64,000 nt of DNA from Ostreococcus lucimarinus (taxonomy: Eukaryota). A program made the translations under genes and the position numbers. The DNA lies in the NCBI GenBank assembly GCA_000092065.1, contig CP000595.1. One strand, given 5' to 3'. The notes beneath the pieces were generated by a model. It saw only the letters and a program-made list of their open reading frames with translations, was not told the DNA's origin and did not search any database. Numbering within the stretch: the first letter of the stretch is position 1; each line of letters starts with the position of its first letter. Positions 6,153 through 53,305 of this stretch are shown piece by piece.

Positions 6153-9100
6153 TCATCGCTTGCCGCGACCGCGACCGCCGCGGCCGCCTTTGCCGCCGCG
6201 GCCGCCCTTGCCGGCGCGCTTGGCGGAAGCGCGTTCGCCGCGTGCGTCGGCGAGCTGACGCTTGTCGACGCTCGGGCCGCCGGCGTTGCCGCGATGATAC
6301 TTGCGAGCGACGACGACTTTCCGAGGCTTTTTGATCGCGCCGCTTGTCGCTCGGCGCGCCTTGGCGAAGACGCGCTCGATTTCCTTGGCTTTGCTGACGT
6401 CGGGAACGTCGTCTTGCTCGATGATGGCGGAGGCGCGTACTCGGGCTTGAGAAATCTTCGCCTCCGCGCGTTTCTTCTTACGCCATTTCGCTTCGGCGAC
6501 TTTCTTGATCGGGCGCGTGTTCACCGCGGCGAGCTGCGCCTTGGCCTCGGCGAGCTCAGCGGCGGTGTACTGCGGAATCGGCTTCATAAAGCGACGCTCG
6601 TCTTCAGCGAACCAGTCGGGCACGTCGTCGTCATCGAAGGCGTAGCGGTTGTACGCGTCTTCGATGAGTTCTTCGCGGTCCTTCTTGCGAATCATCTTCT
6701 TCCCTAAAGCTAAGATTCGCGCCCGAGTGTCGTCGGAGAGCTCGTCGACTTCGGAATCGTACCCGTAGCCCTCCGCGTCGGAGTCGCTATCTGTAGGCGG
6801 TTCCGCCTCGGCAGTGACGACTTCGAAATCGCCACCATCGACGGCTTTGCGTCTCTTTTGCCGCGTGGTGTCTTCATCGGATTCGTCGTCGTACGTGTCG
6901 TCGCGCGCGGCGCCCTTTCCGCCGCGACCCGATCCCTTCGTCTTCGCCTCCGACTTGGCTTTCTTTTCCTTTGCCTTGGCTCTGAGATCATCGAAATTTT
7001 CCTCTTCGTCTTCGGTCGCTTGTTTTTTCTTCTTTTTCTCCTTCTTGCTCGATTTGACTGGAACTTCCTCCTCGTCTTCATCGCTGTCTAAAGCTTCCGC
7101 GGGCGCGGCCTTGGCCTTCTTTCCGCTCGCAAACAAGTCGTTCGAGAACCACATGTCCGCAGCCTTGACGGCGTTTTTCTTTTGCTTAGTGCCGAGATCG
7201 ACGACGAGCGGGTTTGCATCTTTCTTCGACTTGGACTTTTTACCTTTAGGCGCGTCCTCGTCCTCGTCTGCGTCGTCCCACTCGAGCTCGTCGCTGTCCG
7301 ACTTGAATTCGTCGTCCGCGGGGTCGCTCGCGTCGTCGTCGTCTCCGTCTTCGTCGCTTGAGTCTTCGTCGTCCAACTCCCCCGCGCCGAGTTCAGTGCG
7401 CCTATCTCTACCCTTGCTAGCCTCGGTGAACTTTTCACCCTTTTTCTGTCGACGCGCCTTGTACATGTCCCACATGTCATCGACTTCTTTATCTAATCTT
7501 CGCTCGTCCTCTTCGGTGTCGGAATCGGCGTCCGAGTCGTCCTCTGGCTCCTCGTCGCTATCGCGCGCGGCGTCGATGCCCGGCGTCGGCGCCTTGGAGA
7601 CGACGTCGAGCGCACCTTTGGTTTTGATGCGCGCGAGCGAGAACAAATCCATCTCTTGCTCCACGATCGCCTCGCCGCTGCTCGCCAACCCTCTCGCGAC
7701 GCGAAGACGCTCCTTGGCTTTGATTTTAGCCCTCTTCTTCTTGTCTCGTCTGGCTTGGGCATCCATCGAGTTTTTCAACTCGCTCATCTCGTCCAAGAGT
7801 TGATCCTTTTCATCGCCGGCGTTTTCGTCATCGCTATCGCCAGCTTCTTCTTCTTCGCCGGATGACTCGTCGGAGGAATCCTCGTCGTCGTCTTCGCCGC
7901 GTTTGCCGCCTTTGCGAGCGTGCTTCTTCTTTTCGAGTCCCGCTTGCTTACGAATCGTCATGCGCCAACGAAGCAAGAGCTTGAAGTCAGCCTTTCCTAA
8001 AACACCAAGATCGCTCATCAACGAACGAATTTCATCCGTCGTCGTCGGGTGATTGTCGAGATCCATCCATCCTTCCTCGGGCGGTTCCAAACCTTTTCGA
8101 TTCTGCGTCGAGAAAAAGTCAAATCGGTCAGTCGTCGTCGTCGTCGTCGTCGGATCCCAGAGAGAAAAAGTCACAAAAGTACGAGCGATCGAAAGCCTCA
8201 GATGGGTAAACGGCATTGTACTATAGGTTTGTTTCAGCAGGGGCTCTGACCTCCCTTCAAACAAACTGTGAAGCTGTATCTTCATAAGCTTTCGATCGCC
8301 GCGAGAAAAACGTCGCGCTCTTGACGACGCACCTTGCCGTCCAAAATAAACGTGTGATGACTCCCAAGCATTTCTCCCGGCTTTTCGTTCACGATGAATT
8401 CTTCCGCCGTGCATTCTTTGTACAGCGTGGACACGCCGTCTTCGTAACCGCTACGATTCCGCTTTCGCTTGCCGTTGTCCTTCGTGACGTCGAGCGGCTG
8501 AATCTCCGCCTCGGTGTCCGCAAACAAATGCCTCGCATCCAATAATCTTGGATCAATCTTCGTCGGCGCCAGGTACCCACTACACACCACGTAAATTTCA
8601 GCCGAGGTTCCGCGCGACGCCACGGGCTTGGTGCTCTCAACCTTTTTAAACAACTGTTGAAACGCGTACAACAACGCGTGATACTCGACGCTCCGGAAAA
8701 CCTTCGTCACGAACCACCCTCCCGGCCCCAAAAACTCCGTCGCCAGCCGCAACGAATCCAACGTCAGCGCCGCCTGCGTGTACGACTCCTTCGCGAAGTT
8801 CCCACCGACGTTCGGCGCCCCATCGTGTATCACCACGTCGTACTTTAATCCCTGCGGCGTCACGCGTTTCAGCGCCGCGCGACAGCTCTGCGTCGTGATA
8901 TCCTCCACCAGCGTCGTCACCCCTCGAATCGGTCGAATCGGCGCTAAATCCACCCCCACGATCGTCGAGCTCATGGGCATGTATTTCTGCGCCACTTGCA
9001 GCCATCCACCGGGCGCGGCGCACAGATCCATGCACGCGCGCGCCTTTGACAAAAAGTCATACTTCCGGTTCAACTGCACGAGCTTAAACGCCGCGCGCGA

Positions 9101-9342
9101 GCGGAACCCTTGCTCCTTGGCGAGGTAGTAGTACTTATCTGCGATCGATCGCGCGCATCTCGCGCGCTCGCGGGTCAGTCTGGCGCTCGCGCGCGTCGAC
9201 GCGGCGTCGATTCGGTTTGCGGCGGCGGCGGCGGCGGCGCAACTCGCGCGCGGCTCGCGCGCGGCTCGCGCGTCGCGCGCGGCTCGCGCGCGGCGAACGA
9301 CGTCGTACCTAATCGATGCTTCCCCTTGGCGCGTTTGCCCAT
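6153..9342 (-). CDS. SPB1: AdoMet-dependent rRNA 2'-O-methyltransferase Spb1/FtsJ3; 3 exons (9342..9309, 9138..8333, 8102..6153)
   Basis: Two ORFs in different frames (8282..9412 and 6153..8414) both match Spb1: the FtsJ methyltransferase domain and the DUF3381/Spb1_C part. Exon 1 encodes [11 protein letters not shown] followed by a G; a GTACGA donor at 9308 and a CAG acceptor ending at 9139 rebuild the conserved start MGK...[11 protein letters not shown], as in yeast MGKTQKKNSKGRLDRYYYLAKE. A second intron (GTGCGT donor at 8332, CTGAC branch, CAG acceptor at 8103-8105) joins ...FILDGK to [12 protein letters not shown]...[27 protein letters not shown], in frame. The C-terminus is acidic and lysine-rich, as in Spb1. 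Confidence 0.8.
8103..8332 (-). other. Intron 2 of SPB1 (230 nt, lower GC, contains a (CGA)n microsatellite)
   Basis: GTGCGTCG donor, ACTGACC branch-like motif and a pyrimidine tract followed by CGCAG acceptor. Without splicing the reading frame hits a TGA at 8282-8284. The joined exons align with the yeast Spb1 region between the methyltransferase domain and the TTDEFRS motif. Confidence 0.6.
9139..9308 (-). other. Intron 1 of SPB1 (170 nt, GC-rich, internal CGCGCGGCTCG and GGC repeats)
   Basis: On the minus strand it runs GTACGACG...ACTGACCCGCGAGCGCGCGAGATGCGCGCGATCGATCGCAG. Removing it restores the conserved Spb1 N-terminus. An ACTGAC branch-site-like motif lies about 40 nt before the AG. 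Confidence 0.7.
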
Positions 9343-9490
9343 GCCTGCGACGACGCGAGGCGCGAGGCGCGGAGTGCGACGCGACGCCCGGGATACTTTG
9401 ACAAAAAGTCATGCTTCCGACAGCGTCGGACGCTCGAATGGATGGGAAAGGGCGATGCGCGAGCGATCAAAGGACATCGCGCGATTAATA

Positions 9491-33086: not shown

Positions 33087-33270
33087 CGCGACCGACCGTT
33101 TTTTCGGCGCGCGACCGACCGTTTTTTTTTTATCCACGCGCGCATTCGTAAGAACGCTCGAATGAACGCCATGTGCGCGCGCGGCCACCGCGCGCGACCG
33201 ACCGTTTTTTTTTTTGAATCCACGCGCGTATTCGTAAGAACGCTCGAATGCACGCCATGTGCGCGCGCGG
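33087..33270. repeat. Intergenic tandem duplication (about 80-bp unit x2 plus a partial third copy of its 5' motif CGCGCGACCGACCG-T(6-13))
   Basis: Copy 1 at 33108..33184 and copy 2 at 33191..33270 are near-identical: gcgcgaccgaccg, a T-run, [ga]atccacgcgcg[ct]attcgtaagaacgctcgaatg[ac]acgccatgtgcgcgcgcgg. They lie in the divergent promoter between the 31216..32844 (-) gene and the FtsHi (+) gene. Confidence 0.85.
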
Positions 33271-33271
33271 C

Positions 33272-33326
33272 AAAACCCGTAATCGATCGCGCGCGCGCGC
33301 CCACCGCGCGATCGATTACGGGTTTT
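33272..33326. repeat. Perfect 21-bp-arm inverted repeat (palindromic hairpin) with 13-nt spacer
   Basis: Left arm 33272-33292 is aaaacccgtaatcgatcgcgc. The right arm 33306-33326 is its exact reverse complement. It directly abuts the tandem duplication and lies about 135 bp upstream of the FtsHi ATG. Confidence 0.85.
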
Positions 33327-33461
33327 TATCGCGCGCCGCCCTAGGTCGCGACGATCGCGCGTGCGCCGCGCGCGACGCCGCGACGCGCGTCACGTCGCGT
33401 CGATCGGACGCGCGCGCGCGTGGCGTCGCGTCTGATCGTCCGATCGACCCGCGGCGACGCG

Positions 33462-36092
33462 ATGGCGCTCGGCGCGCGCGCGACGACGCGGGATTTCGCG
33501 ACGGGCGCGACGCGCGTCGCGCGACGACGACGACGACGCGCGACGACGACGACGACGACGCGGGATGTCGCGACGCGGGCGCGCGGTGACGACGGTGACG
33601 CGCGACGCGTCGCGCGCGCGGCGGTCGGCGACGACGCGGCGCCGATGGCGAGCGAGGACGGGGCGACGGCGACGGGGTCGGCGAGACGCGCGCTGGGGCG
33701 AGCGCTGAGCGTCGACGACGACGACGCGCCGGGACGACCGTCGGCGCTGATGAAGACGCCGCGACCGACGGTGAAGCCGACGAAGGTGCCGCGGTGGTTG
33801 GCGCCGCTGGTGGATCAGTATTTCGTCGATCACAAGGCGCAGGCGAGGGCGCTGCGAGAGGGTCGGAGGTGGGACGGCGAGGCGGAGGATAGGGAGTACG
33901 CGGCGGCGTTTAAACTGTTCAAGACGGACGAAAGCGAGCGACCGGTGGAGATGACGTATCTGTTGGAGGATTACCCGAAGTTGTTGAAGCGGATGGGGAA
34001 GATGCGCAAGGCGCGACGGGCGAGTCGGGCGCAGCGGGAGGACACGTACCCGGATCCCGACACGAAGACTGTGAAATTCGGGTACCAGCGAATCGCGGAG
34101 AAGATGGGCGTGTACCCGCGCATCGATGGCGAGGCGACGTACGCGCAGTTTTTGGAGTACCTCGAACGACGCGAGGTGACGCGGGTGTTGCTCTACGAAG
34201 AGGGGAACATGGCCATCGCGGAGATGGGCGGTCCGGCGACGCACTTGGATCCGAACGTCGACGTCATTCGGTGGAAGGTGCAAATCCCGGGCGACGCGCA
34301 CGATGAGGTGACGCGGGCGTGTCTGAAAGCGTTTTACACGAAACCACACAACCCGGAAGATTTGTTCACTCCGGCGCAAACGCCGTGCCACCTGTTCATG
34401 AACATCAAGCCTTGGAACGTGGGCGTGCACGGCGCGCGCAACTGGCTCATGGCGTCGACGTTTTTCTACCTCGCGGGTACCGTGTGCAAGGGGGTGATTC
34501 AGGCGGACAAGGATCCCGAGGTCAAAAAGCGACGCGCGTTGAGGCAAAAGATGAAGAACGAGCGCGCGGCGCTCGCGGGGCAGATGGGAAAATCCAAGGC
34601 GAAGCTGGTGAAGAAGAACCAATCCAAGGTGCGCTTCAAAGACGTCGCCGGTCAAGACATGGTGGTGAACGAATTCCAGACCATCATCGACGTCATGAAG
34701 GGCAATCCGAAATACAAGGGGCGTTACGTCGAGCCGCCGAAAGGGATCTTGTTGGAAGGACCGCCCGGCACGGGGAAGACGCTCTTGGCGAAAGCCGTCG
34801 CCGGCGAAGCCGGGTTGCCATTTTTTTACGCCAACGGTTCCGAGTTTGTGGAGATGTTCGTCGGCGTCGCCGCGAGTCGCATGCGCAACCTGTTCAAGCG
34901 CGCGCGTGAAAACGCGCCGTCGATCATTTTCATCGACGAGCTCGACACCATCGGTCGCGCTCGCAACGCTGGCGAACAGCGCGACTCGTCGACGTCTGAG
35001 CGCGAGCAAGGGTTGATGCAAATGTTAGTCGAGATGGATGGTTTCGACAACAAGGAGTCCGGTTGTGAGATCTTGGTCATCGGTGCGACAAACTTGGCGA
35101 CGCAACTCGATCCAGCGCTGCTGCGTTCGGGGAGATTCGATCGCACCTATCACATCGGCGTGCCGCCGACGTCCGAGGCTCGCATGCCGATTTTGCAAGT
35201 GCACGCTCGCAACTTAAACATCGACCGCGGAGGTGACGACAAGTACGAGAGCGATGCCTTCTTACATCGCGTTGCCGATCTCACCACCGGCTTCTCCGGC
35301 GCCGAGCTCGCGAACGTGCTCAACGAAGCCGCCATCTTGAGCGTTCGCGAAGGCAAGGACTCCATCGATATCAACGACATAGAAGCCGTTTTGGAAAAGC
35401 AAGCCGTCGGTCTCATCAGCGCTCCGCTGGACGATGGTTGGGGGAAAGAGCACTTGGCCATCATCGAAGCGGCCAAGGCTGTGATTTATTCCGCTCGCCC
35501 CGAGCTCGGCCCGGAGCTGCTGCAAGTCTCCATTCGCCCTCGAGGAACGCAAATGTCTGGCCTCATCTTGACGGAGCGCTCGAGCGAAGCCGAAGCCGAG
35601 ATTCGCACCAGGATAGGTCCGGACACGCTGGGTTTGTACATCGACGCTCTCGCCGTGACGTTGACTGGTCGATGCGCAGAGTTGCACTTTTTCGGTCCCG
35701 ACGGTGTGTCCATTCGAACGAATGAAGAAGTTTCCGCGGCGGCGGAGATGGCGTTCGACATCGTCACCACGTCGGGTCTGTACCCGGATAGCAAGTTTGC
35801 GCCGCACTTCGATATGGCCATGGTTCACCAGCTCAGAATTCCTCGAGAAAATATGGAAAAAGGCACGCTCGATGTCATCCTTCGCGCGCACACCAAGGGC
35901 ATGGAACTCATTAAGGAGTATGCGCCGCTCATCGAACGCGTCGCGAACGAGCTCATGGAGAACGAACGCTTGTACGGCTCCACGGTTCGCGCAATGGTGA
36001 AGAAATACCAGCAAGAAGAACTAGGCGGCAACTTTACGCGCACGCCGTCGTTCTACGAAAGGGCGGCGATGAATAGCGCATCCAGCAATTAG
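33462..36092 (+). CDS. FtsH-like AAA+ protein with degenerate M41 metalloprotease motif (FtsHi-type, presumably plastid)
   Basis: The ORF-track start at 33420 is GTG; the first ATG at 33462 was verified. The AAA module is intact: Walker A GPPGTGKTLLAKA, Walker B IIFIDELD, and the SRH with LDPALLRSGRFDR. The M41 domain is recognisable, but the zinc-binding site reads AIIEAAKAV where FtsH has YHEAGHA, so both His ligands are lost. Confidence 0.8.
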   Translation: MALGARATTRDFATGATRVARRRRRRATTTTTTRDVATRARGDDGDARRVARAAVGDDAAPMASEDGATATGSARRALGRALSVDDDDAPGRPSALMKTPRPTVKPTKVPRWLAPLVDQYFVDHKAQARALREGRRWDGEAEDREYAAAFKLFKTDESERPVEMTYLLEDYPKLLKRMGKMRKARRASRAQREDTYPDPDTKTVKFGYQRIAEKMGVYPRIDGEATYAQFLEYLERREVTRVLLYEEGNMAIAEMGGPATHLDPNVDVIRWKVQIPGDAHDEVTRACLKAFYTKPHNPEDLFTPAQTPCHLFMNIKPWNVGVHGARNWLMASTFFYLAGTVCKGVIQADKDPEVKKRRALRQKMKNERAALAGQMGKSKAKLVKKNQSKVRFKDVAGQDMVVNEFQTIIDVMKGNPKYKGRYVEPPKGILLEGPPGTGKTLLAKAVAGEAGLPFFYANGSEFVEMFVGVAASRMRNLFKRARENAPSIIFIDELDTIGRARNAGEQRDSSTSEREQGLMQMLVEMDGFDNKESGCEILVIGATNLATQLDPALLRSGRFDRTYHIGVPPTSEARMPILQVHARNLNIDRGGDDKYESDAFLHRVADLTTGFSGAELANVLNEAAILSVREGKDSIDINDIEAVLEKQAVGLISAPLDDGWGKEHLAIIEAAKAVIYSARPELGPELLQVSIRPRGTQMSGLILTERSSEAEAEIRTRIGPDTLGLYIDALAVTLTGRCAELHFFGPDGVSIRTNEEVSAAAEMAFDIVTTSGLYPDSKFAPHFDMAMVHQLRIPRENMEKGTLDVILRAHTKGMELIKEYAPLIERVANELMENERLYGSTVRAMVKKYQQEELGGNFTRTPSFYERAAMNSASSN

Positions 36093-36162: not shown

Positions 36163-39100
36163 CTACGCGGCGCCCCTCGTGTTGCGACGCACTTCGACGT
36201 AGTGCTCGACGGCGTAAGACACACAGTTTGGACACGCGACCGCGCACTTTTGCAATTTATAGTCGCTTTCGAGTAACATGGACGACAGGGGTAAATCCAG
36301 AATCTTCAATCTCGCCTTTGCGTCGTTGACTTCGCGCTGCAACTCTTCAGAGCCGTAGCGGTGTCCGCACGTGAATGCCCAGCACTGCGCACCGTCGACT
36401 GAAGTCAGAGAGTCCAGTTCCATCGCGTCGAAAGCTCGCGTTTGAACAAACTCGGGGGAATCCAGGCGAGATGCTAGATCTTGCTTGATTTTCAACCAAA
36501 CGCTTTCGATTGTAGCGCCATCCTTCGAAGAATACTTTGACTCGTCCTCGGCTACTCGTTTCGTCGCGACGGCGAGAATGAATTGACCGCTGAATTGAAA
36601 TCCGAGATCACTTTGCAGTACAACTTGCATAGCCTCTGCGTGACCTTGAGAGACGAGTACGTCAAGAAACAAACGTTCGAGTTCGTCGATAGGCAATCCA
36701 TTCCTTTGCCAGCATCGTGCTACGTCTTCGATTGATTTCACTTGCGCGCGCGTGTCGACCACCCGCGCGACGTACGTCTCGACGCCCAGCTCGAGCTCAG
36801 CCTGTAAGGTTGACGGCGACGTCTCGCCCACAGCGGCGAGCTTTTGAACAGCGGCCACGTGGCACATAGCGGCGGTGGCAAAGTCTTCCATCTGTGACGC
36901 TGCCAACTCGGTGATGCGAAACTTTCGCTTGTCCAGACACTTGGACGCGATCCAACCAAACAACTTTGGATCGTCTTCCAACATGACTTCGATGCGCTCG
37001 GCAAGAGCGTTTTCGTCGTCCAAGTACAAAAGTATCGTTAGCTCGATTTCAGCTGCACCGGTGACGCCAAGATTTTTCGCCTCGCGCGCCATATCCGCGA
37101 GCGAGCGCAGCTCATCTCTCGTCAACATGTCGTACACAAGTTCCAAGGGCGACGCCTCGCACGTGTCCGTCGTGTCGCTGTCCAAACCGAGCACATGAAC
37201 GATGTCGTACAGATTTTCCATCGTCTGCGTAGCGATGACGTAGTACGTGACATTCGGATCCCAAAACACGAGTGGTTTGGACTCCCAAGTACGCACGGTG
37301 CCGCCGCTGTGCTCGGCTGCTTGCGTCATCAAATTCGCTGTGACGCCACCGAGCATGTGCAAGCTCTCAACGGTGGATGATGAGGACAACAGCATGGTGA
37401 ATAACGTTTTGATTCGATCTGAGTACTCGTTCGCCGCACACGACGAGATCACGGATGTGCTCACCGCGTTCGCAGCCTCGAACGCGACGACGGCGGCGCT
37501 CGCCGAGCACGCCACGTCGCGCTGCACGCCCGCGTCTTTGGTGGCTTCGATACCTTCACCGATGACGCGCAAAAGATCCTTCACCGCTTGTTCAGGGGAG
37601 CGTTCTTCTTTCAGGTTCAACTTTTGGAGCTTCGCTTGAATCGATTCTCCCAAATCGTGCGCGGCGGCGTTGTACGCGACTGCGTTCGACGCTTCGCACC
37701 ACGCGTGCAAATGCGCGTGCGCGGCGGCGGCCGTCTTCAACCACGAAAGGTTCGCCTGTCCTCCGTACGCCTCGACTGATTTTCCGTGGAAGTTCGTCAG
37801 TGCTTGCGACGCCTCCCACGCCTCTAAGCTCAGCGAGATGAAATCTTTGAGTGGCTTTCCAGTCTTCCCGAATAAATCGCGCGCTCGAGAGAAATTTTGT
37901 CGCTTGAGCTCCTGGCGCGCAGCCTCGACGAACACGGGCATGTGATCCTCGTCCAAGACGTGCGCGACGAGTTTTAAGCGTTCGTCTTGGTCGAGATCTA
38001 CGCTTAAAGCGTTGTCACCGAACTCGTCGCGTTCGATCGGCGCCCACGCGTCGCGGCGGGTCGAGGCAACGACCGCGTTCGGCGACATGAACGATCGCAG
38101 CGTAGACGCGATGTCGACTTTTGACTTAATTTCGTACACCCCGTACGATGTCCACAACATGCATCCGCACAGCGTCTCTCGTCTTCGCACGTACGTTTCC
38201 GGGAGCTCAGCCGCGAGGAACTTTTTTGGCACGCCCGCGGAGCGCGGCACGTGAAACGTCTGCAGCGTAAACGACTTGGAACCGTCGGTCCCGAATCTTC
38301 GCGCCAACACGTGCACGGACGCGGTGAATGAGGTTAAGTCTGCGAGATCTTCCTCACCGAAAACCGGTTCGCGCACCAAGGCGAATATTAAATCTTCAGT
38401 CACGTGCACGGCGACGGTGTGATTCGGCAACGCGTGCGTGGATTTTGGCTCGGTGGCGCGATCCACGTCGTACAACTCCAACGTACGGCGATCGATCAAC
38501 GCAGCGATGAGCGAATATCCATCGCTCTCGCCGGTCTCTTGCACGCTCAGCGTCACCTGCCGCCCCTCGCGAACGCCGTACTCATCCTTGAGCAGGTGCG
38601 CGGCGAATCCGTGCGAACCCGCGGCGTCCGGTAACGATTCAGCCTTGGTCGTCGTCTCCACCTTGCCTTTTTCGCTCGTCGACGTCTTCACCACGCGCGA
38701 CATTTTCTCCAGCATCAACGTCCAAACTTCGCCCTGAACACCGTTGATGACGAGAAATTGCTTCGTCGCGCCGCGCGCGAGCTCCGCGCTCGCGCACTTG
38801 GCGCCGACGACGCACGCGCCCAGAGGCGACCCCTCCTTCACGTCCCACGCCCGCACCTCCCCGTCCACGCCGACGCATATCCCCACCACCGGATCCTCGC
38901 GCTCGGGTTCGAGCGCGCGATACCACCACAGCGCGCTCGCCGGCTTCGGCCCTCTCGACGCCAACACCCGCATCGCCGGCGACGCCTCCGCGTCACGCGT
39001 CAACTCCAAAATCGGCACCACGTACACCCCTCCCGCGCTCGTGCAGCACAACAAGCTTTCCCCATCGCGCGAGTGCGCCATCGCGTGGATCCTCGCGCGC

Positions 39101-39588
39101 GATCCCTCGTACCACGGCGCCAACCGTTTCGTCGCGCGTCGTCTCGCCGCGATAAAATTTTCCACCTTGGCCGCTCGCGCGCTCCCGCTCGCGCCGAATC
39201 CGCTCACCGAGCACGCCAACGCGCGTCCTCGCGCGTCCGCGTCGCCCTCCTCGCCGCGCGCGCGTCCTCGCGCGCTCGACGCCGCGATGAATTCCATCGC
39301 CCCGTCGTCGAATTCTTCCCTCGCCGCCGCCTCCGCGCCCGCGCTCGCGCCGCCGTCCGTCTGCGCGTACCCGAACATGGCGCTGATGCTGAACGACCGC
39401 TCGACCGCGCCGTCGGGCGGTCGCGCGCGCGCCCGGCGCCGTCGGTCGACGCCGAGCGCGTCATCGACGACGAAGATTTCGCACTCCAATCGCGCGTCCG
39501 CCTCCGTCGACGCCCCGGACGCGTCGCGCGCGTCGCGAGCGCGCGCGTCGCGACGCTCGGCGCGCGTCTCGCGCGCGTCGGCGTCCAT
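36163..39588 (-). CDS. Large hypothetical protein: N-terminal beta-propeller-like region, long helical solenoid, C-terminal Cys-rich zinc-finger-like motif
   Basis: It is a single 1141-codon ORF with ATG at 39588 verified. The C-terminus, CWAFTCGHRYGSEE...CAVACPNCV, resembles the RING-like endings of vesicle-tethering and GATOR/HOPS-type beta-propeller/solenoid proteins, but the family is not securely assigned. The first 100 codons or so are low-complexity and overlap the antisense of the neighbouring gene, so the true start may be an internal Met. Confidence 0.55.
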   Translation of the reverse strand: MDADARETRAERRDARARDARDASGASTEADARLECEIFVVDDALGVDRRRRARARPPDGAVERSFSISAMFGYAQTDGGASAGAEAAAREEFDDGAMEFIAASSARGRARGEEGDADARGRALACSVSGFGASGSARAAKVENFIAARRRATKRLAPWYEGSRARIHAMAHSRDGESLLCCTSAGGVYVVPILELTRDAEASPAMRVLASRGPKPASALWWYRALEPEREDPVVGICVGVDGEVRAWDVKEGSPLGACVVGAKCASAELARGATKQFLVINGVQGEVWTLMLEKMSRVVKTSTSEKGKVETTTKAESLPDAAGSHGFAAHLLKDEYGVREGRQVTLSVQETGESDGYSLIAALIDRRTLELYDVDRATEPKSTHALPNHTVAVHVTEDLIFALVREPVFGEEDLADLTSFTASVHVLARRFGTDGSKSFTLQTFHVPRSAGVPKKFLAAELPETYVRRRETLCGCMLWTSYGVYEIKSKVDIASTLRSFMSPNAVVASTRRDAWAPIERDEFGDNALSVDLDQDERLKLVAHVLDEDHMPVFVEAARQELKRQNFSRARDLFGKTGKPLKDFISLSLEAWEASQALTNFHGKSVEAYGGQANLSWLKTAAAAHAHLHAWCEASNAVAYNAAAHDLGESIQAKLQKLNLKEERSPEQAVKDLLRVIGEGIEATKDAGVQRDVACSASAAVVAFEAANAVSTSVISSCAANEYSDRIKTLFTMLLSSSSTVESLHMLGGVTANLMTQAAEHSGGTVRTWESKPLVFWDPNVTYYVIATQTMENLYDIVHVLGLDSDTTDTCEASPLELVYDMLTRDELRSLADMAREAKNLGVTGAAEIELTILLYLDDENALAERIEVMLEDDPKLFGWIASKCLDKRKFRITELAASQMEDFATAAMCHVAAVQKLAAVGETSPSTLQAELELGVETYVARVVDTRAQVKSIEDVARCWQRNGLPIDELERLFLDVLVSQGHAEAMQVVLQSDLGFQFSGQFILAVATKRVAEDESKYSSKDGATIESVWLKIKQDLASRLDSPEFVQTRAFDAMELDSLTSVDGAQCWAFTCGHRYGSEELQREVNDAKARLKILDLPLSSMLLESDYKLQKCAVACPNCVSYAVEHYVEVRRNTRGAA

Positions 39589-43992: not shown

Positions 43993-44407
43993 CGCTCGAC
44001 GCCCGCGAGCGCGATATTTTAGCGCGTGTAACGATAGTGATTAGCGTACTAGTGCCGAACGCGGCGCCGCGGACGCGGTCGGATTCATCGCGTCGCGTCG
44101 CGTCGCCGTCGTCGCCACTCGTCGCCTCGCGCGACGCGAATGCGCTCGAGCGCGCGACCGTACGTCGCGGGTGCGCTCATTTTGTGGGCCGTCGCGCTGC
44201 AGGCGCACGTGTGGAGCATCCCGGACGCGGAGTTGAGGCGATTGCGCGGAGATTCGCGCGTGTCTTTCGTCCCCAGCGCGCGCGGGGTGCATGCGCGCGG
44301 GGCGAGGCGCGACGGCGACGACGACGACGACGCGAGCGCGCGGCGACGCGATTAAAGCGAAACGCTCGAAGGTCGCGCGAACGACGCGCGCAAACGCGCG
44401 GCGAGTC

Positions 44408-46894
44408 ATGGCGGGAGAGGCGGCGGCGATCGACGTGACGACGCTGCTGTCGACGTGCGTCGACGCGGCGGGACGCGGGTGCGCGGAGATACGGCGAGTG
44501 CAAAAAGCGCGCGATGAAGCGGCGAGCGACGATGAGAGCGCGTTCGTGGTGACGAGAAAAGTGGCGAGCGATCCGCGGTCGGCGCTGACGGAGGCGGACG
44601 TGGCGGCGCAGAGCGCGATCGTGAGCGCGTTGAGGGCGCGGTGGCCGACGGTGAAAATCGTGGGCGAGGAGGACGAAAACGACGACGCGGCGCCGATGAG
44701 CCCGAAGCGAGGGGCGCCGCTACGCGAGGATTTGTGTGCGGCGATTGAAACGTGCGATGACGCGCGATTGCGGACGATGCGGGTGAAAAGCGAGGACGTG
44801 ACGGTGTTCATCGATCCCGTGGACGGGACGCGAGAATTCGTCGAGTCGCGTCTGCGCGCGGTGCAGTGCTTGATCGGAATCGCCGTGCGCGGACGCGCGG
44901 TGGCGGGTGCGATCGGGTTGCCGTTTCCTGATGGTGACGTCGCGTCGTCGGAGGCGTGCGTGGTGTACGGCGCGGTGGCGCCGGGGGCGAAGCGCGGCGC
45001 CGTGGGCGCGCACGGCGAGCGCGGCGCCGCTCTCGAGATACGATTCGACGCAGAGAACGCGCAGGTGCGCTCGGTGACGGGAGATTCCAAAAATGCGGCG
45101 TTAATCGCGGCGAAAGAGATTTTGCGAGAGACGGCGACGAAAAGCGGGGCGACGTACGCGCACGGCTCGATCGGCGGCGCCGGGAATAAATTGCTCGCCG
45201 TCGCGGAAGGTCGCGCCGAGTACGCTTTGATGCACTTCGGGACGTCGCTGTGGGACACGTGCGCACCCGAAGCGATCGTTCGCGCGTGCGGGGGGAAAGT
45301 GACGGATTTATACGGCGCGCCGCTGATGCATTACGAAGACTCGCCGGGGGGGTTGGTGAACCAACTCGGCGTCGTCGGTTCGTCCGCCGCGTGCGAAGGC
45401 GCGATTTCGCACGACGCCGTGTGCTCGGAGATGCGTGGAAACGAAGACTTGAAGAAGATGCTGAATCGCTTCACGGGTGGTGATAGCTCGCTCGCATTCG
45501 GCGGCGATGAAATTCAGGCGAGCGACGTCGCGCGGTGTTTGGGCGGCGGACCGTTGTCGGCGCGAGACGTCGGCGACCGCGTCGCGCGCGCCGTCGGCGC
45601 CGAAGGCGACGTCTCGCTTTCCGGATACTCCGCCCCCGAGCGCGACGCCGTGCGCGGTTTGATGAGCGATGCGTGTCGTATCTATTTCAAATGGTCCACA
45701 GACGACGACGGTCGTCTGCCCCGGTCGGCGTTCTACAAAAAAGTCGACATGGGCAATCTCGAATACATGCGCACCAAGCAAGTCACGCAACCGCTCAAAA
45801 TTGCGCGCGACAGTAAATCGTACGCCGTCGAGGCGTCGTTTCTCGCCTCGGACGCGTGTAAGGCGCTCGAAGAAGCGGGCATCGGCGTACCGATATGCTA
45901 CGCCGCCGACTTGCGACCGGTGCACGACGACCCGATCGAGAGCAAGTTTTCCCTCTTGCTCGAAGACTTTCACCCGAGCGACGGTTGGGAACAGGCGAAG
46001 ATGCTTCGACCGGATCAAGCCAAATGCGCGCTCAGAGCGCTCGCGCGCATGCACGCGTTCTTCCTTCCGGGAAGTCGCTTCCGAAAGTCATCGAAAGCCG
46101 CGAATGAGGATCTTCTCGCCACGGTTTGGAGCTCGGGCGGATATTGGCAACCGAACATGCAACCGGACGATCAGATGGACGTCGTGGCGAGCGCGTGGGA
46201 GCAGCATATGTCCAGCTTCGGCGCCGCGATTGAGGCCGAGCCGACGATCGACATCGCCGTGGCGCGAACCGTCGGTGCGAGATTACAGTCGCACGCGCGT
46301 CGAATAGGCGCGGAGACGCACCCGTTTTCGGGATGTCCGGGCGCCGACGACGCGTTGCGACACGGCGGCGAGAGACTGGCGGCGCTGCAAACCGTCATCC
46401 ACGGTGATCCGAAATCGGGTAACATTTTTGAGCGACGCGCGGGGGAGTCCGACGAATGGGAAATCGGTCTGATCGATTTCCAATGGACCGGGATCGGGCT
46501 CGGCGGTACGGATGTCGGGCATTTTATGTGCGCGTCCGTGGCGCCGGAGGGGCTGAGCGCCGACGGCGCCGCGGAAAACGCACTCGTCGACGTGTACTAC
46601 GACGCGTTTTGTGAAGCCGCGGCGGAATTCGGCGCGGTGTCGAGTAAAGAAAACGCTGGCGAAGAGTTGCTCACGCGAGAAGAGTTACAAGTGCAGTATG
46701 AAAACGGAGTATTGGATACGATGCGATGCGTGTTTGGCTACCAGTGGCTTCGCGTCAAGGCGTCGCCCGAGTCGCTCGCGAAGAACGCACAGTCCATAGG
46801 GCGCAACAGTTACAACAAGTCGCTCCCGAACGCGTTGTGGATGATTCGCACTGCGGATTTGTATCTCAAGGCGCGCGAAGCGAGAGCGCATTAA
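44408..46894 (+). CDS. Two-domain fusion protein: N-terminal inositol-monophosphatase/PAP-phosphatase (FIG) fold plus C-terminal APH/choline-kinase/EcKL-type kinase-like domain
   Basis: N-terminal IMPase-superfamily motifs: VFIDPVDGTREFV and WDTCAPEAIVRACGGKVTDLYGAPL. C-terminal kinase-like motifs: VIHGDPKSGNIF (HGD...N catalytic loop) and IGLIDFQWTG (DFG-equivalent). ATG 44408 gives MAGEAAAIDVTTLL..., typical of an IMPase N-terminus. An alternative ATG at 44291 would add a Thr/Arg-rich leader. Confidence 0.6.
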   Translation: MAGEAAAIDVTTLLSTCVDAAGRGCAEIRRVQKARDEAASDDESAFVVTRKVASDPRSALTEADVAAQSAIVSALRARWPTVKIVGEEDENDDAAPMSPKRGAPLREDLCAAIETCDDARLRTMRVKSEDVTVFIDPVDGTREFVESRLRAVQCLIGIAVRGRAVAGAIGLPFPDGDVASSEACVVYGAVAPGAKRGAVGAHGERGAALEIRFDAENAQVRSVTGDSKNAALIAAKEILRETATKSGATYAHGSIGGAGNKLLAVAEGRAEYALMHFGTSLWDTCAPEAIVRACGGKVTDLYGAPLMHYEDSPGGLVNQLGVVGSSAACEGAISHDAVCSEMRGNEDLKKMLNRFTGGDSSLAFGGDEIQASDVARCLGGGPLSARDVGDRVARAVGAEGDVSLSGYSAPERDAVRGLMSDACRIYFKWSTDDDGRLPRSAFYKKVDMGNLEYMRTKQVTQPLKIARDSKSYAVEASFLASDACKALEEAGIGVPICYAADLRPVHDDPIESKFSLLLEDFHPSDGWEQAKMLRPDQAKCALRALARMHAFFLPGSRFRKSSKAANEDLLATVWSSGGYWQPNMQPDDQMDVVASAWEQHMSSFGAAIEAEPTIDIAVARTVGARLQSHARRIGAETHPFSGCPGADDALRHGGERLAALQTVIHGDPKSGNIFERRAGESDEWEIGLIDFQWTGIGLGGTDVGHFMCASVAPEGLSADGAAENALVDVYYDAFCEAAAEFGAVSSKENAGEELLTREELQVQYENGVLDTMRCVFGYQWLRVKASPESLAKNAQSIGRNSYNKSLPNALWMIRTADLYLKAREARAH

Positions 46895-50651: not shown

Positions 50652-52085
50652 CTAAAGGAAATCGAACAATCGCAAAATGGCGTCGAAGACGCCGACGGCG
50701 ACTTTTTCATCCATCACGGCGTCGACATCGATGGCGACTTCGTCAGCCATGAGGGCGGTTTCCGCGATTTTCTGAAACGCGTATTGCGCGGCGATTAACG
50801 CCGCGATGGCGGCGGTTTTCGCGTTGACGGCGTTGGGAGAGCTAATGTCGGAATCTTCGCGTTGACACGCGTTCATGGTGTTCACGTGCTCGCCCTCGTC
50901 GTCGCGAATGTTGCTAAAGACGTCGAACAGCGATCTGATTTGCGGACGTCTCAAGCGCACCTCTCTCGCGGTTTGGAACTCGTCGAAAAGGTACAAATCG
51001 GCGGCTTCGTAATATTCGACGGCGATTCTCGGCGCGGGCATGCTCTTCAGGAGCTCGGCGTTTTGATCGACGAATTGCCCGTACGTGTCCACGGCGTGTC
51101 CCTCGATGAGCTCTGAGAAGTTATACGCCAACGCCGGAGATATGAGCCACAGCGCGACGAGCACGAAGTAATACACGATGGCGGCGTGCTGGCCCAAAAA
51201 ACGATCCCGCCAACACGCGTCGCCGCCGAGCGACTCCATGACGAGCAGATGATGATACTCGTTCCATTCCTCCGCGAAGTGCACTTTACGAAGCTCCGAG
51301 CTTCGTCGCCACCATCCCAAGATTTCATAAAACGTCAGCATGGACGTGTAACTAAAGTACGGCATCCTCGCGACGGTTTCAAGAAACCAAAACCGTTGCA
51401 CCGGCTGCGTCTCGTCGAACAATTTATCCAACATCACGCACAGCGCCACGTACGGCACCTTCAGTATCCAAGGCGCCGAAATCTCCGGCCTCGCTCGCTC
51501 CCGCGCCCAAATCGCGTCCGCGTCCAATCGCAGCGCGTCCATCTTCGCCCGCAACTCGGCCGGCATCGCGTCTCGCGCCTTCTCCGTCTCTGGCGTATTC
51601 GCGTCGAAATACGCCATCATCTCTCTGAGCTCGCGCGCGAAGTTCTCGGTGCCGCTCTGCAAAAACCCTCGCGGCACACCGTGTCGTTCGATGTCGATGT
51701 AGCACCCTCGCAAGCTCGCGATGTAGCCGTACGAACACGAAAACTCGACGTCGTCGTCGTCGTCTCGCGACGCCTCCCTCGCGAGCGTCGCCGCCGCGTA
51801 CGCCAGCTCCGCTTTCGCCAGCGCCGCCTTCGCCGCGTCGCGAGACGCCCGCAGGGCGTCGACGTCGGTGTTTCGCGCGATCGCGGCCCTCGTTTCGCGC
51901 GTCGTCGCGCTCGCGAAGGCGTCGGCGACGTCTTCCGGGACGTCGGCACCGTCCTCGACGCCGTCGCGCGTCGCGCGCGCGCGACGCCGCGCGCGCGACG
52001 TCGCGAGACGCCGACCGCGCCTCGGTCCGTTCGCGCGCGCGACGACGCGCGCGCGCGACGGCGCGACGGCGCGCGGCGTCGTCAT
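50652..52085 (-). CDS. PTOX: Plastid terminal oxidase (PTOX/IMMUTANS; plastoquinol oxidase, di-iron carboxylate family), plastid-targeted
   Basis: All iron-ligand motifs are present: LETVARMPYF, EEWNEYHHLL, ELIEGHAVDTY and DDEGEHV. It is collinear with Arabidopsis IMMUTANS from WIIKLEQ to the C-terminus. The ORF runs up to 52943 but would overlap the divergent gene; the first non-overlapping ATG at 52085 was verified and gives a transit-peptide-like MTTPRAVAPSRARV.... Confidence 0.85.
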   Translation of the reverse strand: MTTPRAVAPSRARVVARANGPRRGRRLATSRARRRARATRDGVEDGADVPEDVADAFASATTRETRAAIARNTDVDALRASRDAAKAALAKAELAYAAATLAREASRDDDDDVEFSCSYGYIASLRGCYIDIERHGVPRGFLQSGTENFARELREMMAYFDANTPETEKARDAMPAELRAKMDALRLDADAIWARERARPEISAPWILKVPYVALCVMLDKLFDETQPVQRFWFLETVARMPYFSYTSMLTFYEILGWWRRSSELRKVHFAEEWNEYHHLLVMESLGGDACWRDRFLGQHAAIVYYFVLVALWLISPALAYNFSELIEGHAVDTYGQFVDQNAELLKSMPAPRIAVEYYEAADLYLFDEFQTAREVRLRRPQIRSLFDVFSNIRDDEGEHVNTMNACQREDSDISSPNAVNAKTAAIAALIAAQYAFQKIAETALMADEVAIDVDAVMDEKVAVGVFDAILRLFDFL

Positions 52086-52114
52086 GACGCCGACCGCCGA
52101 CGACGCGCCAAACA

Positions 52115-53305
52115 ATGACGCGATGTTCGACGGCTCGCCTCGCGACGCCGAGCCCGCGCGCGCGCGCGCGCGACGCGCGCGCTCGAGCGGTTCGCGACGA
52201 CGCCCCCGCGCGCTGGCGATGTCCGGCGTGCCTTCGACGGGGCGCGCGGGAGCGGTTGCGGTCGGAGCGGGACGCCAACTGTATCGACGGCGGCGATGAA
52301 AAACGCGCCGCGGCGACGTATCGCTGCGCGAACGGACACGCGCTCGACGCGAGCGCGTCTGGGTACGTGAATTTGTTCGTCGGGAAGCGCGCGCGAGGGG
52401 ACTCGAGGGCGCAGCTGCGCGCGAGACGGCGATTTTTGGTCGAGGGCGGGCACTTCGGCGCGCTGAGCGAGGCGGTGGCGGACGCGGTGTTGGGACGCGC
52501 GGCGGACGCGCGCGATGGGGACGCGGAATTAGGGTTAGCGGTAGAATTAAGGTCTGGAGGCGATGCGGCGTCGACGACGGCGACGTCGCCACGAGCGAGA
52601 CGCATGGCGCGGAAGCGGGAAGCGAGGAGCGAAGCGCGCGCGGCGAATCCGAACGCGGCGAACCCGAACGCGGCGTCGGCGAAGGTGAAGGCGAAACCGC
52701 TCCGAGTGGTCGATTTCGGGTGCGGTGAGGGCTATTATTCATCCGTCGTGCTCGAGCGCGCGAGAGCGCGGGATGACGTCGAGTTGGAACTCGCGGCGTT
52801 GGACGCTTCGAAGGACGCCGCCGATTTGTGCGCGGCGGCCATCGGCCGATTCGCGCGCGTCGCCGTCGCTGACGCGACGCGCGATTTGCCCCTGGACGAT
52901 GATAGCGTAGACGTCGCCATGAGTGTATTCGCACCGCGTTCACCGACGGAGCTCGCGAGGGTACTAAGGAAAGGCGGTCGAGCCGTCGTCGCGAGTCCGG
53001 ACGACGATCACATGGTCGAGCTTCGCGACGCGTTCCGGGACGACGACAAAATCACCGTCCTCGGCGTCGAGCCGAACAAGTCCACTCGCGTTGATGAAGC
53101 TTTTCTTGCCGCCGGGTTCGACGTCGTGTTCCGACGCGCGATTCGCGACGTGGTTCCGCTTCCCGCCGACGCCGTAGCCGATCTCGTCTTCATGGGTCCG
53201 AGTGGCTTTCACAACCCAGAATCAGCTATTCGCGACGCAGTCGGCGATGCCCCGCGTGTCGTGACGATATCGTTTAACGTTGTCGTGTACGCTTTGCTTC
53301 GGTGA
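52115..53305 (+). CDS. RlmA/RrmA-type 23S rRNA (guanine-N1)-methyltransferase, organellar
   Basis: ATG at 52115 was verified. It has the N-terminal zinc-finger CPAC...CANGHALD, GYVNLF, the class-I methyltransferase motif I VVDFGCGEGYY, and collinearity with E. coli RlmA. Confidence 0.7.
   Translation: MTRCSTARLATPSPRARARDARARAVRDDAPARWRCPACLRRGARERLRSERDANCIDGGDEKRAAATYRCANGHALDASASGYVNLFVGKRARGDSRAQLRARRRFLVEGGHFGALSEAVADAVLGRAADARDGDAELGLAVELRSGGDAASTTATSPRARRMARKREARSEARAANPNAANPNAASAKVKAKPLRVVDFGCGEGYYSSVVLERARARDDVELELAALDASKDAADLCAAAIGRFARVAVADATRDLPLDDDSVDVAMSVFAPRSPTELARVLRKGGRAVVASPDDDHMVELRDAFRDDDKITVLGVEPNKSTRVDEAFLAAGFDVVFRRAIRDVVPLPADAVADLVFMGPSGFHNPESAIRDAVGDAPRVVTISFNVVVYALLR

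Follow-up and report, generated by a model that had tools for sequence, protein, structure and literature searches.

An intronless Ostreococcus gene for an Fhl1/FtsHi4-type pseudo-protease AAA+ ATPase, a likely subunit of the chloroplast import motor

Introduction

FtsHi proteins are FtsH relatives in which the AAA module is kept and both histidines of the HEXXH zinc motif are substituted, a pattern written as 'XEXXX' (PMC8197885). Does the nuclear genome of Ostreococcus lucimarinus encode such a protein, and to which subunit of the chloroplast import motor would it correspond? To answer this question, we analysed the FtsH-like gene at positions 33462-36092 of a 64,000-nucleotide stretch of its DNA (assembly GCA_000092065.1, contig CP000595.1), and we call this whole stretch the window. 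A preliminary description of the gene, made from the sequence without database searches, had read it as a protease-dead FtsH of the FtsHi type with an intact ATPase and a long N-terminal domain of about 330 residues, and had considered it relevant to the distribution of the motor among green algae. Sequence, predicted fold, and neighbor-joining (NJ) trees identify the product as an Fhl1/FtsHi4-type subunit, an assignment narrower than FtsHi in general. We consider it highly probable that Chlamydomonas Fhl1 and Arabidopsis FtsHi4 have their Ostreococcus-lineage ortholog in this protein and that it serves as a pseudo-protease subunit of the import motor.

In Chlamydomonas, Fhl1 belongs to the core subunits of the Orf2971-FtsHi hexamer, all of which are devoid of HEXXH. 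These core subunits carry an N-terminal domain (NTD) with the FtsH periplasmic-type domain (PD-FtsH) in the intermembrane space and a C-terminal domain (CTD) in the stroma, and the complex hydrolyses ATP (bioRxiv 10.1101/2024.09.02.610899). The Arabidopsis FtsHi4 null mutant is embryo-lethal (PMC8197885, PMC9020784). Plastid-encoded ftsH(ycf2) and ycf1 are present in 12 of 12 prasinophyte chloroplast genomes compared (PMC4194372), for which reason the motor is expected in the prasinophyte lineage, and both genes are expressed in Micromonas (PMC5344333). The green algae covered by the published FtsHi surveys that we found are Chlamydomonas and Dunaliella only.

Results

An Intact ATPase Module Followed by a Domain Without the Zinc Site

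Coordinates below are positions in the window, and residue numbers refer to the 876-residue product. The gene is a single open reading frame (ORF) starting at its first ATG, with 876 codons, a stop codon, and no internal stops in the translation. The coding sequence and its C-terminal modules are as follows.

33420-36092, plus strand: ORF, from the ORF list
33462-36092, plus strand: intronless complete coding sequence of the FtsHi4/Fhl1-type pseudo-protease AAA+ ATPase, from the ORF list and translation
34746-35159, plus strand: AAA+ ATPase large subdomain
34758-34781, plus strand: Walker A, GPPGTGKT, residues 433-440, by motif location
34854-34865, plus strand: pore loop, MFVG, residues 465-468, by motif location
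34923-34940, plus strand: Walker B, IIFIDE, residues 488-493, by motif location
35085-35144, plus strand: second region of homology (SRH), ATNLATQLDPALLRSGRFDR, residues 542-561, including R555 and R558
35259-35387, plus strand: AAA+ lid (small subdomain)
35445-35990, plus strand: pseudo-protease (M41-derived) domain
35463-35477, plus strand: HEXXH-position, I668-E669-A-A-K672, by alignment to solved FtsH

The ATPase module is recognized by Pfam AAA over residues 429-566 (E 6.5e-40) and by Pfam AAA_lid_3 over residues 600-642 (E 4e-11), and sensor-1 is N544. In a 58-sequence alignment that takes in true FtsH, the motif residues are invariant except F466, I488, I489, and I491, each of which is conserved in at least 90% of the sequences. 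Walker A, Walker B, and the SRH are thus as intact as previously described.

The domain behind the AAA lid retains the M41 type, and the FtsH-family architecture of an AAA+ module followed by an M41-type domain is present. Pfam Peptidase_M41 aligns with residues 662-843 over model positions 8-189 of 191, although its 22 bits fall under the 29.9-bit gathering score. A profile of the Mamiellales CTD matches the Aquifex FtsH protease domain (2di4) with 55 bits (E 6.7e-14), and Foldseek gives TM(target) values of 0.75-0.82 against the cytosolic parts of FtsH, AFG3L2, and YME1.

The column of the zinc site is set by alignment of the Aquifex segment 'IAIHEAGHAL' over 'LAIIEAAKAV' of the Ostreococcus protein, and also by the true FtsH proteins P0050 and P0103 (plastid or bacterial), which read 'HEVGH/HEMGH' at this position. 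The HEXXH zinc motif of an active FtsH protease is absent. As the preliminary description had proposed, it is replaced by IEAAK, with both His ligands gone and the Glu kept. Another acidic residue, E740 in the conserved FtsH 'AEE' segment, is also retained.

Both histidines are missing in all orthologs, including those of Mamiellales, other chlorophytes, and land plants. The position reads I/M/L-E-A-x-K/R in Mamiellales proteins of the Ostreococcus type, V-E-A-G-R in those of the Micromonas type, x-x-A-A/G-R/K in core chlorophytes, and R/A-E-A-A-I/V in land-plant FTSHI4. With both histidines substituted and the AAA module kept, the protein falls within the published FtsHi definition and the 'XEXXX' pattern (PMC8197885), which bears out its earlier identification as an FtsHi protein. 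In the NJ clade described below, many proteins carry T, V, L, Q, W, or Y instead of the Glu, which is therefore not essential to the family.

A sequencing error at the HEXXH codons, which the preliminary description had raised as a caveat, is ruled out. The codons ATC GAA GCG GCC AAG are the same on the independent metagenome contig L008, and restoring either lost His takes two base changes, which together exclude a single-base error; moreover, no ortholog has either histidine.

Placement in the Fhl1/FtsHi4 Family

The Protein Data Bank (PDB) covers six core subunits each of the Arabidopsis Ycf2-FtsHi (8xku/8xkv) and the Chlamydomonas Orf2971-FtsHi (8xks, 8xqw) complexes. In a phmmer search against it, the top single-domain matches were Arabidopsis FTSHI4 (At5g64580; 8xku_A, 271.5 bits) and Chlamydomonas Fhl1 (8xks_D/8xqw_A, 270.8 bits). 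Only these two among the 12 motor chains outscored bacterial FtsH (at most 263 bits), and no further motor chain appeared among the best 60 matches, which extended down to 250.5 bits.

The predicted structure gave the same ranking. With an AlphaFold2 (AF2) model of the whole protein (mean predicted local distance difference test, pLDDT, of 72.5), Foldseek placed Fhl1, Fhl1, and FtsHi4 at ranks 1-3 (E 1.8e-40 to 3.5e-39), above the E. coli FtsH model and the remaining motor chains. A separate AF2 model of residues 95-375 (pLDDT 78.8) also returned Fhl1, Fhl1, and FtsHi4 as ranks 1-3 (E 1e-5 to 1e-4), followed by other motor subunits and then by the periplasmic N-domain of E. coli FtsH.

A first NJ tree grouped the algal clade with the plant FTSHI4 clade. 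The second NJ tree added 35 diverse HEXXH-bearing FtsH representatives together with family representatives at 50% identity; the search among the latter was dominated by multi-AAA proteins and became useful after a coverage filter on single high-scoring segment pairs. In this tree, the Ostreococcus protein lies in a 39-sequence clade composed exclusively of HEXXH-less proteins with 100% bootstrap support. The clade contains an algal Fhl1-like group of 30 sequences (98%), and P0268 plus land-plant FTSHI4. A fragment of Chlamydomonas Fhl1 taken from a printed alignment finds its best matches inside the HEXXH-less clade, among the core-chlorophyte representatives. The protein is closer to Fhl1 and FtsHi4 than to other FtsH and FtsHi paralogs, the latter being compared via PDB chains only.

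Comparison With Fhl1, FtsHi4, and Canonical FtsH

Chlamydomonas reinhardtii Fhl1 (8xks chain D, 8xqw chain A), a core subunit of the Orf2971(Ycf2)-FtsHi motor, is not only the top Foldseek match of the whole protein and of the NTD but also the best PDB match of the CTD in a single-sequence search. It belongs to the same algal clade and is arranged like the Ostreococcus protein, with a presequence, an NTD containing PD-FtsH, one membrane helix, AAA+, and pseudo-M41 in this order. Its zinc-site segment 'LALITAAKAV' resembles 'LAIIEAAKAV', with Thr at the position where the Ostreococcus protein keeps the HEXXH Glu. The two proteins share 26-28% identity over the columns aligned by Foldseek, and Fhl1 is about 300 residues longer (1178-1182 vs. 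876 residues), its pseudo-protease domain containing insertions and its C-terminus being extended.

Arabidopsis FtsHi4 (8xku chain A) likewise lacks both His and keeps the Glu (R-E-A-A-V/I), and all named plant matches in the protein search were FTSHI 4. The plant branch stands beside the algal Fhl1-like branch within the 100%-bootstrap clade. Sequence identity is 28-30% in multiple alignments and 36-38% over about 56% of the query by BLASTP. The differences lie in the second His, replaced by Ile/Val in the plant protein and by a Lys/Arg-type residue in the Ostreococcus protein, and in the plant CTD, which has diverged too far to be matched by the C-terminal query or profile.

Compared with canonical FtsH (E. 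coli, Aquifex, Thermotoga, and plastid/cyanobacterial), the AAA+ module is 33-37% identical over the aligned region, with a pore loop MFVG and an SRH of identical type. The M41 fold, as matched to Aquifex 2di4, and the fold of the periplasmic domain are also kept. The Ostreococcus protein differs from canonical FtsH in the absence of HEXXH and hence of a zinc site, in its sub-threshold Pfam M41 match, and in the absence of the first transmembrane (TM) helix, in place of which it carries a presequence and a helical extension.

A Composite N-Terminal Region

A long N-terminal region is present as described before. Composition, models, and alignment resolve it, however, into four parts rather than one domain of about 330 residues.

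33462-33746, plus strand: presequence-like region, residues 1-95, Ala/Arg/Thr-rich and disordered by prediction
33792-34040, plus strand: helical extension of the NTD, residues 111-193, from AF2 helices and conserved columns
34119-34406, plus strand: degenerate PD-FtsH domain, residues 220-315, from the order of elements in the models, alignment, and Foldseek
34425-34505, plus strand: single hydrophobic helix, residues 322-348, from a Kyte-Doolittle peak and a long helix in both models

The first 100 residues include 23 Ala, 19 Arg, and 14 Thr. Residues 1-90 are mostly below a pLDDT of 50 in the AF2 model and poorly conserved among orthologs. By this composition, residues 1-95 are probably a chloroplast transit peptide. 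The extension that follows is modelled as helices at residues 111-120, 124-154, 162-170, and 174-193, with pLDDT values of mostly 70-88 and about 52-67 for the first helix; it is kept in chlorophyte orthologs with the motifs PRW..A, R.WD, and TYP.

Residues 220-315 show a beta-alpha-beta-beta-beta-alpha-beta order in both AF2 models, and the segment 'TYAQFLEYLERREVTRVLLYEEGNMAIAE' aligns with the N-terminal domain of the true FtsH P0050. Foldseek with the NTD model gives TM(target) values of 0.60-0.72 for the E. coli FtsH N-domain (2muy/4v0b). Structure prediction, which the preliminary description had suggested for this region, therefore points to a PD-FtsH-type fold with Fhl1 and FtsHi4 as the top matches. 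When the N-terminal 387 residues alone were searched against PDB sequences, no meaningful match was obtained, and the sole match of a Mamiellales NTD profile was to Fhl1 residues 200-234 with a weak E of 0.064, so that the homology of the NTD is visible by fold search and, weakly, by profile only.

The sole Kyte-Doolittle peak above 1.2 reaches 1.32 at residue 328. Judging from its hydrophobicity and its location at the position of FtsH TM2, the helix of residues 322-348 is presumed to be a TM anchor. An equivalent of FtsH TM1 is missing. A single helix and the missing TM1 agree with the topology of the Chlamydomonas core subunits (bioRxiv 10.1101/2024.09.02.610899) and with AtFtsHi4, for which one TM helix was predicted (PMC8197885). 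As modelled, the NTD would combine the PD-FtsH fold with a family-specific helical extension and a single membrane helix.

A Maintained Gene Under Purifying Selection

The coding sequence recurs on contig L008, which is 99.5% identical to the window across 5.8 kb; its protein P0001 shares both start and stop and is 99% identical. A look-up by exact match did not return the window protein from the sequence collection; the 90% cluster of the gene product comprises 247 member sequences. The ratio of nonsynonymous to synonymous substitution rates (dN/dS) against P0003 and Ostreococcus tauri, respectively, is 0.25 and 0.35 for the NTD, 0.12 and 0.10 for the AAA module, and 0.17 and 0.19 for the pseudo-M41 domain, values that are rough because dS is about 1 to the nearest available species. 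All three parts evolve under purifying selection, and there is no decay of the gene.

Within the gene, the window and L008 differ at 15 nucleotides, 14 of the differences being nonsynonymous and five occurring as adjacent doublets. All 15 lie at 33503-33991 (codons 15-177), in the presequence and the early NTD, with none in the remaining 2100 nucleotides. This clustering could reflect a targeting region whose evolution is relaxed or diversifying, or else a consensus drawn from mixed strains.

A Conserved Locus and a Divergent Micromonas Ortholog

The window is compact nuclear DNA with a GC content of about 63% and mostly intronless housekeeping genes. Its segment at 28.4-48.4 kb is colinear with O. 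tauri contig CAID01000016 (locus L005), with protein identities of 49-69%. The common order is ubiquitin, ribosomal protein S6, a 542-residue ORF, the FtsH-like gene, a convergent gene for about 1000-1100 residues, START, an ORF of about 510 residues, HEAT, RRM, and TPH. Between the homolog of the 542-residue ORF and the FtsHi gene, O. tauri has three further genes, encoding GT90, a glycosyltransferase, and a nucleotide-sugar transporter, and the window carries an extra gene at 44291-46894, encoding an inositol-monophosphatase fused to a kinase-like (EcKL/APH) domain.

On a Micromonas pusilla-like contig, the same neighbors (S6, ubiquitin, START, HEAT, and RRM) flank the gene of a 1060-residue FtsH-like protein.

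L006 10001-13183 (loci L006/L007): Micromonas positional ortholog P0019, by synteny

The 90% cluster of P0019 includes XP_003054958.1 of M. pusilla CCMP1545. Since the neighbors are shared in Micromonas, O. tauri, and the window, P0019 is the positional ortholog. We considered the Micromonas-type proteins (P0015, P0016, and P0019) as paralogs and rejected this, as synteny shows one conserved locus. Their motif state is of the same type, V-E-A-G-R, but they are only 39-40% identical to the Ostreococcus protein and, at 1060-1153 residues, longer; about 60-70 extra residues sit immediately in front of Walker A, and the C-terminus is drawn out into a long acidic tail. The Ostreococcus-type protein is a streamlined version relative to Micromonas. 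Such divergence is unusually strong for an essential-type gene inside one order. A Micromonas origin of the window itself, which its GC content and TPH-domain gene could suggest, is rejected: the TPH gene has the same location in O. tauri, colinearity with O. tauri extends over 20 kb, and the Micromonas gene at this locus is as divergent as stated. The synteny points to an Ostreococcus-like member of the Mamiellales.

The intergenic region upstream of the FtsHi gene contains a 64-nucleotide direct repeat (33122-33185 and 33208-33271, 94% identical), directly followed by a perfect 22-nucleotide inverted repeat (33272-33293 and 33305-33326) with an 11-nucleotide loop. Both lie within the divergent promoter region, and it is mainly here, at 33247-33269, that L008 departs from the window. 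Downstream, 70 AT-rich bases separate the stop codon from that of a convergent gene at 36163-39588 on the minus strand, whose 1141-residue product gives no Pfam match, is 61% identical to its O. tauri neighbor, and is conserved in Mamiellales.

Other genes in the window encode a kinase-ARM protein, Spb1, MRG, ATG14, UTP25, NMD3, an AOX-domain protein, and a patatin/NTE protein. The Spb1/FtsJ rRNA methyltransferase gene (6156-9412, minus strand) occupies two ORFs that overlap and use different frames, of which 8285-9412 carries FtsJ and DUF3381 model positions 3-47, and 6156-8414 carries DUF3381 positions 51-162 and Spb1_C; from the sequence, the split near 8285-8414 appears to be a short intron or a frameshift. 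At 50652-52943 on the minus strand, a 763-residue ORF has an alternative-oxidase (AOX/PTOX-type) domain at residues 508-693 only, preceded by an N-terminal part of about 500 residues without a recognized domain. An identical copy of the NMD3 protein appears in 489 indexed blocks of the sequence collection, and the organism is abundant in marine metagenomes. Scans of the whole 64-kb window returned no tRNA genes and no Rfam families at the gathering threshold.

Discussion

Several observations weigh against the assignment to Fhl1 and FtsHi4 or against a role in the import motor. The margin over canonical FtsH is small, both in phmmer scores (271 vs. 263 bits) and in Foldseek E-values (1e-40 vs. 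1e-37). The Mamiellales C-terminal profile fits the M41 domain of true FtsH (55 bits) better than it fits Fhl1 (33.7 bits), with no match to FtsHi4 chains or other motor subunits. The trees are simple distance NJ trees, with labelled FtsHi1/2/3/5, FtsH12, Fhl2, Fhl3, and Ctap1 left out. The presumed membrane helix is weakly hydrophobic for an anchor (1.32), and the role in import has itself been questioned for some subunits (PMC10500165). We read the C-terminal profile result as slow evolution of the pseudo-protease in Mamiellales and fast evolution in Chlamydomonas and plants. An independent inactivation would give the same picture; the evidence from the NTD and the clade support argue against it.

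Such an inactivation would make the protein an FtsH paralog that lost its zinc site convergently in Mamiellales, perhaps located in thylakoids or mitochondria and not orthologous to Fhl1/FtsHi4. The near-canonical C-terminal profile and the small whole-protein margin fit this scenario, and fast-evolving sequences may attract each other in NJ trees. Yet Fhl1 and FtsHi4 are also the top matches of the NTD alone, of which canonical FtsH shares no more than the PD core, and the Mamiellales NTD profile matches Fhl1 only. The HEXXH-less clade holds at 100% bootstrap against 35 diverse FtsH representatives. Graded intermediates of the Micromonas, P0011, and P0031 types lead from the Ostreococcus protein to core-chlorophyte Fhl1, and the family shares derived AAA residues, GVAA for GVGA and A-N-G ahead of SEF. 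Convergent loss consequently appears improbable to us. Still less probable is an active metalloprotease binding its metal through other residues such as E669 and E740. Although both are kept and the M41 fold is well preserved, the histidines have become Ile and Lys, neither of which binds zinc, the Glu is dispensable within the clade, and homologous solved complexes were described as unable to cleave polypeptides (bioRxiv 10.1101/2024.09.02.610899). For a sequencing or assembly artefact or a decaying pseudogene, only the unusual motif could be adduced. Against it stand the identical codons in L008, the open frame of 876 codons, dN/dS far under 1, the 247-member cluster, and a motif state common to all orthologs; we regard this explanation as already refuted.

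A different question is whether a protein of this family and complex mainly pulls preproteins. Its main job could instead be to control the quality of envelope proteins, to maintain membrane or lipid homeostasis, or to take part in chloroplast division or biogenesis, with the ATPase acting as an unfoldase or extractase without a protease. The Chlamydomonas complex contains lipid-related subunits (FAD6a, FaxL, and ACP2) and PcyA1, and we keep this alternative because the import role has been questioned for some subunits. It seems unlikely to us, since the solved hexamers show a stromal ATPase ring with a central pore, the ATPase activity of the Chlamydomonas complex has been measured, and the complexes of Arabidopsis and Chlamydomonas co-purify with TIC/TOC and translocating preproteins (PMC7768757, PMC9790281).

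For the Fhl1/FtsHi4-type subunit of an import motor, localisation, topology, complex membership, and function would by analogy follow those of its homologs. The nucleus-encoded, FtsH-derived protein would be imported into the chloroplast and anchored by its one helix in the inner envelope, with the FtsH-periplasmic-type N-domain facing the intermembrane space and the ATPase/pseudo-protease part facing the stroma. There, it would fill one position of a six-membered, stromal-face hetero-hexamer around the plastid-encoded Ycf2/FtsH-like protein. As predicted from its motifs, the AAA+ module still binds and hydrolyses ATP, and the pore loop would engage the polypeptide. The hexamer would thereby pull preproteins out of TOC-TIC by ATP hydrolysis and the aromatic residues of its pore loops. 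Having lost both zinc histidines, the M41 domain would serve only as a structural 'pseudo-protease' element of the ring, and the M41-derived domains of the subunits would together form a non-catalytic ring.

The suggested relevance to the spread of the motor among green algae is supported, although in a weaker form. The motor has already been solved in a chlorophyte, and plastid ftsH/ycf2 and ycf1 are already reported from 12 of 12 prasinophyte chloroplast genomes compared (PMC4194372); an expectation is confirmed and the picture remains unchanged. Public databases already list the O. tauri ortholog, if only under a generic name. Since the surveys are narrow and that name is generic, the explicit assignment in the Ostreococcus lineage is a small addition: a gene so far named 'P-loop NTPase' or 'cell division protease FtsH' can now be assigned as the Fhl1/FtsHi4 ortholog. 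What is mildly new is that the protein is streamlined in architecture, keeps a near-canonical pseudo-protease domain, and has diverged strongly from its Micromonas ortholog.

The loss of the zinc site is ancient, as it is common to prasinophytes, core chlorophytes, and land plants in this subunit. Our results support, without proving it, the Ycf2-FtsHi motor as a general feature of the green lineage and overturn nothing. They also provide a compact version of the subunit for structural and genetic work in O. tauri. More tentatively, the Ostreococcus/Bathycoccus lineage may have kept a minimal and slowly evolving Fhl1/FtsHi4, without the insertion before Walker A and the C-terminal tail and with a pseudo-protease domain nearer to canonical M41 than those of the solved Fhl1 and FtsHi4, an idea for which the odds appear nearly even. 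If true, this minimal form would come close to what the ancestor possessed shortly after losing the zinc site and before chlorophytes and streptophytes diverged, and a reduced Ycf2-FtsHi motor, useful as a minimal model, would be at work in the smallest free-living eukaryotes.

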